Part shown: positions 1 through 1,537 of the stretch, one piece after another | Numbering within the stretch: the stretch's first letter is position 1 | Layout of the letters: each line of letters begins with the position of its first letter | NCBI RefSeq assembly: GCF_003334815.1 | Contig: NZ_QOWO01000001.1 | Source of the DNA: Escherichia coli | Lineage (GTDB): Bacteria > Pseudomonadota > Gammaproteobacteria > Enterobacterales > Enterobacteriaceae | Strand: one strand, 5' to 3' | DNA length: 64,000 nt | The notes under the pieces: model-generated | Database searches by the model: none | Seen by the model: the letters and a program-made list of their open reading frames with translations, nothing else | What the model was told of the DNA's origin: nothing | Position numbers and translations under genes: made by a program

Positions 1-1537
1 AAAAAATCGGCTCAAACATGAAGAAATGAAATGACTGAGTCAGCCGAGAAGAATTTCCCCGCTTATTCGCACCTTCCTTAAGCAATCTGCTGCTGAAGCG
101 CCCCCAACTTCGTGCACTGAGCCTGGCAAAACAAGAGGCTGTATTTTGCAGCACCCACCCCGGTTTGCCTGTCGGTCCGGTTGCTGAAAAGGAACGATGG
201 CGGCACGATATGCTGATTCGTTTTCCTGAAGATACAGGTACTCTGCCCTGGCTCCTGTTAAAAACACCTTACAAAAATGGTACGGTCATTACCGCCACGG
301 ATTATTATTTTATTCAGGACATCATCTCTGTGGTTCATGCGGTTCCTGCAATACAATTCCGTTTGGGAAACACGGTCCTGTCAGCCAGCGGAAAAAATGT
401 CACTCTGCCCCCGAACGACAGCGGCATACAAAAAGAAAGTCATTCAAAAAAATATCCGTTCTCCTTGATTTATATCATCCCGGTGAAAATGCAACTTACC
501 TACGCCTGGAAACAGGCCTGGTATATGTTTCCTGTTGCCATCTTCAGTGGAATACTCACAGCCTTTCTGCTGTCCCGACGTCGTCCATCTTCCCCGCTCG
601 ATATGCTGAAAAATGCACTTGCTCACGGAGAGTTCAGACCTTATTTTCAACCCATCATTTCCGCTAAAAATCACCAACTGACTGGCTGCGAAGTACTGAT
701 TCGCTGGCATCACCCCGTCAGCGGGATTATCCCACCAGATCAGTTTATCCCGCTGGCAGAGTCCACCGGATTAATTGCCCCGATAACGCAACAGTTGATG
801 TCTCAGGTCGAACATAGCCTTAATTCTGTTGCAGATTTTTTACCCGATCAATTTCATATTGGGATCAATATTTCACCAGCGCATTTTCTGTCCCCGAGAC
901 TGGAAGATAGCTGTATGAAGTTTCTATCCACCTTCCCGAAAGGGAAAGTGAAACTGCTTCTGGAACTGACAGAGCGAAACCAGCTATCCGTCACAGCAGA
1001 ATCAAAAGCGTTATTTGCGAAATTACATCAACAAGGAGTATTGTTCGCACTGGATGATTTTGGCACGGGTTATGCGACTCACAGCTACCTGCAGTCGTTT
1101 CCTGTCGATTACATCAAACTCGATAAAGGGTTTGTACAAATGGTCGGAGTGGATGAAATCTCCGGGCATATAGTAGAAAATGTTATTGAGCTGGCTCGTC
1201 GGTTATGTATTGATATCATTGCCGAAGGCATTGAAACCGAATCACAGGAGTTGTTCATGACAGAGAAAGGAAGCAGCTATCTGCAGGGATACCGCTATGC
1301 ACCTCCACTACCCGCTGAACAGTTTATTGCTGAGTGGGTATACAACAGCAGAAACGGCAAAAACCAGAGATAACACATACTGAAATGGACCAGGATATGC
1401 GTCCCTCTTTTCACCTCATCTCCCAATTCCCGGGTTTGATTCCTTTTTCGCAGCAAAAGGGACCGAGGGTACAAAAGAGGGTACATTTCTCACCAAACCA
1501 AACAAATCAGATTTATATCAACATGATAGAAGCAATC
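1..1537. mobile_element. Probable right-hand end of a pheV-associated genomic island (partial, continues left of window)
   Basis: Bounded on the right by a 22-nt fragment matching the 3' end of tRNA-Phe (1538-1559), then a tRNA-type terminator and the gspM/gspL genes that flank pheV in K-12. No integrase is visible in the window. Confidence 0.4.
165..1373 (+). CDS. EAL-domain c-di-GMP phosphodiesterase, membrane-anchored; start uncertain, probably 5'-truncated
   Basis: 402-aa ORF with EAL-family motifs (EVLIR, ELTE, DDFGTGYA, KLDKGF, EGIETE, LQGY) after a hydrophobic segment (MFPVAIFSGILTAFLL). Only a TTG start with no Shine-Dalgarno; in-frame stop at 93-95; internal ATG at 489. Confidence 0.6.
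   Translation: MPVGPVAEKERWRHDMLIRFPEDTGTLPWLLLKTPYKNGTVITATDYYFIQDIISVVHAVPAIQFRLGNTVLSASGKNVTLPPNDSGIQKESHSKKYPFSLIYIIPVKMQLTYAWKQAWYMFPVAIFSGILTAFLLSRRRPSSPLDMLKNALAHGEFRPYFQPIISAKNHQLTGCEVLIRWHHPVSGIIPPDQFIPLAESTGLIAPITQQLMSQVEHSLNSVADFLPDQFHIGINISPAHFLSPRLEDSCMKFLSTFPKGKVKLLLELTERNQLSVTAESKALFAKLHQQGVLFALDDFGTGYATHSYLQSFPVDYIKLDKGFVQMVGVDEISGHIVENVIELARRLCIDIIAEGIETESQELFMTEKGSSYLQGYRYAPPLPAEQFIAEWVYNSRNGKNQR

Follow-up and report, generated by a model that had tools for sequence, protein, structure and literature searches.

A probable IS5-type disruption of an island-borne CSS-motif/EAL phosphodiesterase gene in Escherichia coli

The c-di-GMP phosphodiesterases of E. coli that contain a CSS domain are PdeC, PdeB, PdeD, PdeG and PdeN, to which PdeT/VmpA is added in some pathotypes (Herbst et al., 2018; PMC5897775). 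In PdeC and PdeB, a disulfide between two periplasmic cysteines, made by DsbA/DsbB, keeps the enzyme at low activity; this control and processing by DegP/DegQ are known for these two proteins only (PMC5897775). When the TM2 and EAL portion of PdeC was cloned by itself, it inserted into the membrane without TM1, dimerised through TM2 and was highly active, whereas the disulfide-bonded full-length protein was less active (PMC5897775). Among the accessory GGDEF and EAL genes of E. coli, loss or breakage in single strains is common (PMC5635171).

One agent of gene disruption and activation is IS5, for which cases have been described at fucAO, glpFK and bgl (PMC11894529, PMC2753651). The locus described here resembles these cases in that the IS5-type terminal inverted repeat is identical, the target is a 4-bp C/T-W-A-R sequence and the element is co-directional with the gene downstream. 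Unlike those cases, the element here lies within coding sequence, 240 nt into the gene, and not in a regulatory region. Thus, inactivation rather than activation is the expected outcome.

We have analysed 64,000 nucleotides of E. coli DNA, called the window below, which opens with the end of an IS5-type element followed directly by an open frame for an EAL domain. We consider it about 92% probable that an IS5-type element inserted in a TTAA site after codon 80 and split a CSS-motif/EAL gene carried by a genomic island. In our model, the product of this accessory gene would be a membrane-bound c-di-GMP phosphodiesterase of 511 aa, consisting of TM1, a periplasmic CSS-motif domain, TM2 and a cytoplasmic EAL domain. 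Transposition into TTAA would have interrupted the gene after codon 80. The window starts 77 nt inside the element and so shows only the right end of the IS and codons 81–511; promoter, ATG, TM1 and the first conserved periplasmic cysteine lie beyond the element or were lost.

The IS5-type end and its junction with the EAL gene

Three features mark the junction:

1–77, + strand: right end of an IS5/ISKpn26-like insertion sequence, at 100% identity to the terminus of a multicopy element
62–77, + strand: CTTATTCGCACCTTCC, a terminal inverted repeat of 16 nt that matches without difference the right repeat of the element annotated in strain 203740 (L002)
78–81, + strand: TTAA, the IS5 target site at the junction, present as a single copy in the uninterrupted allele; the second copy of a 4-bp target duplication would be expected at the left end of the element, outside the window

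Exact copies of the first 77 nt of the window were counted at 8210 places, distributed over 1733 of 5426 E. coli genomes. In strain 203740 the same 77 nt close an element that carries the annotation IS5-like, ISKpn26 family. Its transposase is on the same strand, and the inverted repeats GGAAGGTGCGAACAAG and CTTATTCGCACCTTCC form its two ends. The 16-bp terminal inverted repeat that characterises IS5-type elements, GGAAGGTGCGAAYAAG, is represented at the element end in the window by CTTATTCGCACCTTCC at 62–77, and the left end of IS5 reads GGAAGGTGCGAA... The transposase gene (ins5A), which is outside the window, would read towards the EAL gene in this orientation. No further IS5 ends were found in the window beyond 1–77.

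On the other side of the junction, the sequence continues exactly as in the intact allele. Across the site, the intact allele reads ...CAGCGTGAA TTAA GCAATCTGCTG... (CGTGAA-TTAA; L001 4001–4004), and the window reads ...CACCTTCC TTAA GCAATCTGCTG... When window positions 1–1700 were compared by megablast with 5426 complete E. coli genomes, 440 records covered at least 80% of the query and, in those listed, the match started exactly at position 78. ISfinder gives the target of IS5 as YTAR, a pattern that the TTAA at the junction fits. The TTAA is also close to the published consensus for IS5 targets, C(A/T)A(G/A) (PMC11894529).

The window starts with exactly 77 nt of IS5 repeat ahead of unique sequence, which looks like the end of a draft contig more than like a boundary of biological origin. 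The length of this overhang suggests a contig end from an assembly with k=77, and the window probably starts where the contig starts.

A junction in such a position could be an assembly chimera, in which case the gene would be intact in the organism. The window does open inside a multicopy repeat, 77 nt would be typical of a k-mer overhang at a contig end, and the same junction between IS5 and the EAL gene was found in none of the 5426 complete E. coli genomes. Against this, the IS5 inverted repeat is complete to its last base at the junction and a TTAA target follows directly, as expected of transposition but not of a random chimera. We therefore find a chimera very improbable and favour a genuine IS5-type insertion. 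As the left junction is outside the window, a simple insertion and an IS5-mediated deletion or rearrangement are indistinguishable here. The missing 240 nt at the 5′ end of the gene and the region upstream of it were not found within the window, and we infer that the 5′ part of the gene is still present beyond the element.

The interrupted gene, its intact allele and its relatives

The features of the remnant, numbered by residue as in the intact protein, are as follows:

78–1373, + strand: 3′ portion of a CSS-motif/EAL c-di-GMP phosphodiesterase gene, codons 81–511 and the TAA, collinear with L001 4001–5296 of ETEC1732
78–515, + strand: remnant of the periplasmic CSS-motif domain, aa 81–226 (PF12792 covers aa 39–226 of the intact protein)
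147–149, + strand: codon for Cys104, the second conserved cysteine, in the motif CST (alignment A1)
489–491, + strand: internal in-frame ATG, which could in principle give a 294-aa product of TM2 and EAL, without expression signals found
516–572, + strand: TM2, aa 227–245, AWYMFPVAIFSGILTAFLL, followed by SRRRP (Kyte-Doolittle 19-residue scan of the intact protein)
603–1307, + strand: EAL domain, aa 256–490, with a complete catalytic signature (PF00563, E=1.2e-60)

The frame that encodes the EAL domain closes on the + strand at the TAA at 1371–1373 and is open back to position 39. The initial annotation had recognised a truncated gene, and the truncation is real, but the stop that was said to close the frame at 93–95 was wrongly placed. 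Positions 93–95 are CTG (Leu) and the TGA at 94–96 is in another frame; the frame is closed by the TGA at 36–38, with a second in-frame TGA at 27–29, and both are inside the IS5 end. As both of these in-frame stops fall within the final 51 nt of the element, a fusion protein between IS5 and the EAL domain is ruled out.

We found the intact gene in strain ETEC1732 (L001 3761–5296), where it is 1536 nt and 511 codons long and has its ATG 240 nt upstream of the junction. Window position 78 corresponds in frame to nt 241 of this gene. From there, 1295 of 1296 nt are identical, and the only difference, at window position 278, is synonymous, so that the translations are identical. As a single synonymous base separates the window copy from its closest intact allele, the event appears to be recent. 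The initial annotation had proposed a 5′-truncated remnant; the copy does begin at codon 81 of a 511-aa gene, although the cause, IS5, had been overlooked.

The intact protein matches PF12792 over aa 39–226 (E=1.1e-8) and PF00563 over aa 256–490 (E=1.2e-60). A Kyte-Doolittle scan with a 19-residue span detected hydrophobic clusters at about aa 13–31 (TM1) and at 227–245 (TM2), and the conserved periplasmic cysteines in alignment A1 are Cys73 and Cys104. In the remnant only one hydrophobic segment, TM2, is left. The residues ahead of it had been taken for the end of a periplasmic sensor domain, and they are indeed the C-terminal ~145 residues of the CSS-motif domain. The remnant is without a promoter, the start codon, TM1, the first 42 residues of the CSS-motif domain and Cys73. 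Thus, the architecture of two transmembrane segments around a complete two-cysteine sensor domain, present in the intact allele, is absent from the window copy. The catalytic signature (ExLxR, N, ExxE, DD, K, ExxE, Q) is complete in the window copy, as the initial annotation had concluded. In full-length numbering its residues are E285, R289, N344, E376, E379, D406, D407, K427, E463, E466 and Q483, all of which are invariant in alignment A1.

Alignment A1 contains 11 homologues from seven genera, namely E. coli, Salmonella, Citrobacter, Edwardsiella, Aeromonas, Yersinia and Pseudomonas. All 11 reach 60–110 residues N-terminal of the junction. A TM1-like hydrophobic segment is present in every one except P0030, which is the shortest at its N-terminus, and the first cysteine is kept in all except P0038. 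The initial annotation had called for a comparison with full-length CSS-type EAL proteins; relative to the intact allele, 80 codons are missing, including those for TM1 and Cys73. In a database search, the non-truncated relatives were ~490–550 aa long and had a CSS-motif domain and an EAL domain; this range sets aside partial or truncated calls and shorter EAL-only matches, including the LuxR-type PdeL family.

It could still be argued that the frame represents a natural short isoform, or a family whose members start near this position with a TTG. The database does hold entries of 294–446 aa, which give a weak hint in this direction. However, each of the short entries that we retrieved (P0018, P0022, P0023 and P0025) has another origin: the gene was called incompletely where a contig ends, the allele is frameshifted, or the ORF is split and the entry is its downstream half. 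The full-length relatives, moreover, align upstream of the junction. Furthermore, the sequence directly 5′ of codon 81 is the terminus of an IS and not a leader, and no homologue among those examined starts naturally here at a TTG. We give a natural short form next to no credence, and the gene is better described as truncated by the IS5-type element.

How does the protein relate to known phosphodiesterases? The intact allele is like the CSS-type enzymes of E. coli in having TM1, a two-cysteine CSS-motif domain, TM2 and a cytoplasmic EAL domain with the full signature. Unlike the CSS-type enzymes of K-12, it is an accessory, island-borne paralogue, and its motif is CST rather than CSS. The window copy differs further from these enzymes in that it is without TM1 and the first cysteine. 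Overall identity to other CSS-type proteins is about 33–38%. Against the NCBIfam equivalog model for a cyclic di-GMP phosphodiesterase, NF007839 (PRK10551), the intact allele reached 265 bits and the ORF in the window 251, both below the cut-off of 461. The gene is thus a paralogue of the K-12 enzymes and not an orthologue. Publications that mention PdeX, PdeY and PdeU state no sequence identifiers for them in the text.

The closest solved relative of the EAL domain is that of the active enzyme PdeL (YahA), with matches to 4KIE, 4LJ3 and 7PK5 at E ~3e-93 over 248 residues, from end to end. In comparisons that included P0044/P0045 and P0057, identity over the EAL domain was 57% with PdeL-type proteins and ~46–51% with most of the chromosomal CSS-type phosphodiesterases tested. 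Unlike the island enzyme, PdeL is a soluble, transcription-factor-linked protein that joins a LuxR-type HTH to its EAL domain and has no membrane or CSS module. The slightly closer EAL identity to PdeL may hint at a domain exchange.

Of the 5426 complete genomes, 462 carry the EAL gene; its chromosomal location varies, and now and then it is on a plasmid. Other broken alleles of it were found. One is a multiply frameshifted form of 446 aa (P0022), and another (L004 317–1857) is present as split ORFs of 211 and 294 aa. In strain MB06234 (H26) an insertion of the IS3 family splits the gene in two, and three further copies (H91–H93) are partial at the 5′ or 3′ end. This independent breakage in other E. 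coli suggests that the gene is simply dispensable.

Expression signals and possible products of the remnant

The initial annotation had also raised the possibility of a single-TM enzyme expressed from the ATG at 489. Such a remnant would be transcribed by read-through, from its own promoter or from that of the IS5 transposase, and translated from ATG 489 or nearby to give a 294-aa protein of TM2 and EAL. The insertion would then be one that gained activity, with a constitutive phosphodiesterase as its product. If this were true, the insertion would mimic the hyperactive form of PdeC that is processed by DegP/DegQ, redox gating would be lost and c-di-GMP would be lowered in the strain. By analogy with the PdeC fragment of TM2 and EAL, which is active without TM1 (PMC5897775), such an enzyme is biochemically plausible, and the frame, TM2 and every catalytic residue are intact in the remnant. 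ATG 489 is also a start that gene callers have used, as the equivalent codon was chosen in other broken alleles (P0025, 294 aa).

For transcription, the orientation of the element is favourable in that ins5A reads towards the remnant. Transcripts that start at ins5A read through IS5 into the downstream genes of the fucAO operon, but the same work describes the promoter of ins5A as practically silent without activation from upstream (PMC11894529). Given the read-through documented at fucAO, the EAL remnant may well be transcribed. Within window positions 1–1720 we found no sigma-70-like promoter, where 2.4 would be expected by chance. By analogy with fucAO, it is plausible that the remnant is transcribed; the step that lacks support is its translation.

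Pairing with the Shine-Dalgarno (SD) sequence was calculated for three candidate starts and compared with a background that has a mean of −1.7 and a 5th percentile of −5.8 kcal/mol. The values were +1.2 kcal/mol for TTG 165, −4.8 for ATG 210 and −3.0, which is weak, for ATG 489, so that no internal start in the frame is preceded by a convincing SD. TTG 165 is the earliest ATG, GTG or TTG of the EAL frame. The initial annotation was correct that the frame opens with a TTG that lacks a ribosome-binding site, but it had the frame open at position 96, which is AAG. The native start codon of the intact gene has a weak SD as well (−2.1 kcal/mol). Thus, a missing SD is weak evidence against internal initiation.

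Products from TTG 165 or ATG 210 were rejected on topology, as ~100 residues of periplasmic domain would precede TM2 with no signal or TM1. TTG 165 also has no SD pairing, and the modest pairing of ATG 210 is inside the background range. More generally, without TM1 a product would, from its topology, be unable to bring the CSS remnant into the periplasm. The assembly index had no record of the exact product of either 294 or 402 aa.

The intact frame says little about function here. A divergence of one base points to a recent event, so that preservation of the frame is no sign of selection, and with many other broken alleles the EAL gene looks simply dispensable. With its open frame, catalytic residues and TM2 perfectly preserved, the remnant may possibly have a cryptic function. 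Taking these points together with the search for promoters and the weak SD, we hold an active 489-start enzyme to be improbable and infer that the remnant yields no functional protein. We regard the locus as a recent IS5-inactivated pseudogene from which the native protein cannot be made.

For annotation, this means that the locus should be recorded as a pseudogene, namely that of an island-borne CSS/EAL phosphodiesterase disrupted by IS5, and not as an EAL protein of 402 or 294 aa. Events of this kind and the protein family concerned are already known, and the finding is a routine matter of annotation; it is one further example of an accessory GGDEF/EAL gene broken in a single strain (PMC5635171). 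The locus would be informative about the retuning of c-di-GMP by IS movement only if the remnant were expressed as an unregulated TM2 and EAL enzyme.

The pheV island boundary and neighbouring sequence

The right boundary of the island is marked by one feature:

1538–1560, + strand: copy of the last 23 nt of tRNA-Phe (pheV), attR, the right boundary of the island; island-free genomes match the window only from 1538

In the island-free strain LR-33, position 1538 lies in the 3′ end of the tRNA-Phe that is annotated beside yghD. The repeat of the tRNA-Phe 3′ end that identifies a pheV island is therefore present at the boundary next to yghD, and the EAL gene is the last gene of the integrated island. 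ARAGORN found no complete tRNA in the window, and the opposite end of the island, which the window does not reach, must carry the intact pheV. The attR copy at 1538–1560 has one G fewer than the pheV sequence. A strong terminator-like hairpin follows the attR at 1568–1596.

Typical CP4-type island genes lie ahead of the intact gene in strain 300709, namely those for DUF4942, DUF957, DUF5983, antirestriction, DUF932, DUF905 and GTPase proteins. A survey of pheV islands names the gene only as "EAL domain-containing protein" (PMC6174562). The closest core-genome relatives, strains G1/2, G6/7, G8 and KE58, are 100% identical over window positions 25001–50000 and have a different pheV island, without the EAL gene. 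Compared with strain 300709, the first ~2.8 kb (78–2903, containing the EAL gene, yghD and gspL′) is 98.4% identical with 4 gaps, and the next 22 kb (2876–25000) is 99.99% identical. The EAL segment is 99.9% identical to that of ETEC strains from pig and calf. These comparisons of sequence suggest a mosaic ancestry, in which the end of the island may have been acquired or recombined separately from the core.

The window also contains a deletion of ~13.2 kb relative to strain G1/2, which has an intact T2SS-beta cluster. The deletion extends from inside sslE to inside gspL (window 2246–5040, junction at ~2876–2903) and has taken away the 3′ half of sslE, pppA, gspS2, gspC-K and the 5′ portion of gspL. 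Two ORFs remain of the interrupted genes, sslE′ with 721 aa (5040–2875, minus strand) and gspL′ with 151 aa (2701–2246). The flanks of the deletion overlap by 28 nt in the alignment, which suggests that it occurred between short repeats. As a consequence of this deletion, the SslE secretion system would also be inactivated in this genome.

Elsewhere in the window, matches at the Rfam gathering level were to the C0719 sRNA (298 bits), to naRNA4/CssrE REP-derived elements (two loci, one of them on both strands) and to the ES173 sRNA. These matches, at 7268–7489, 32729–32805, 43775–43845 and 49626–49689, are ordinary features of the E. coli core.
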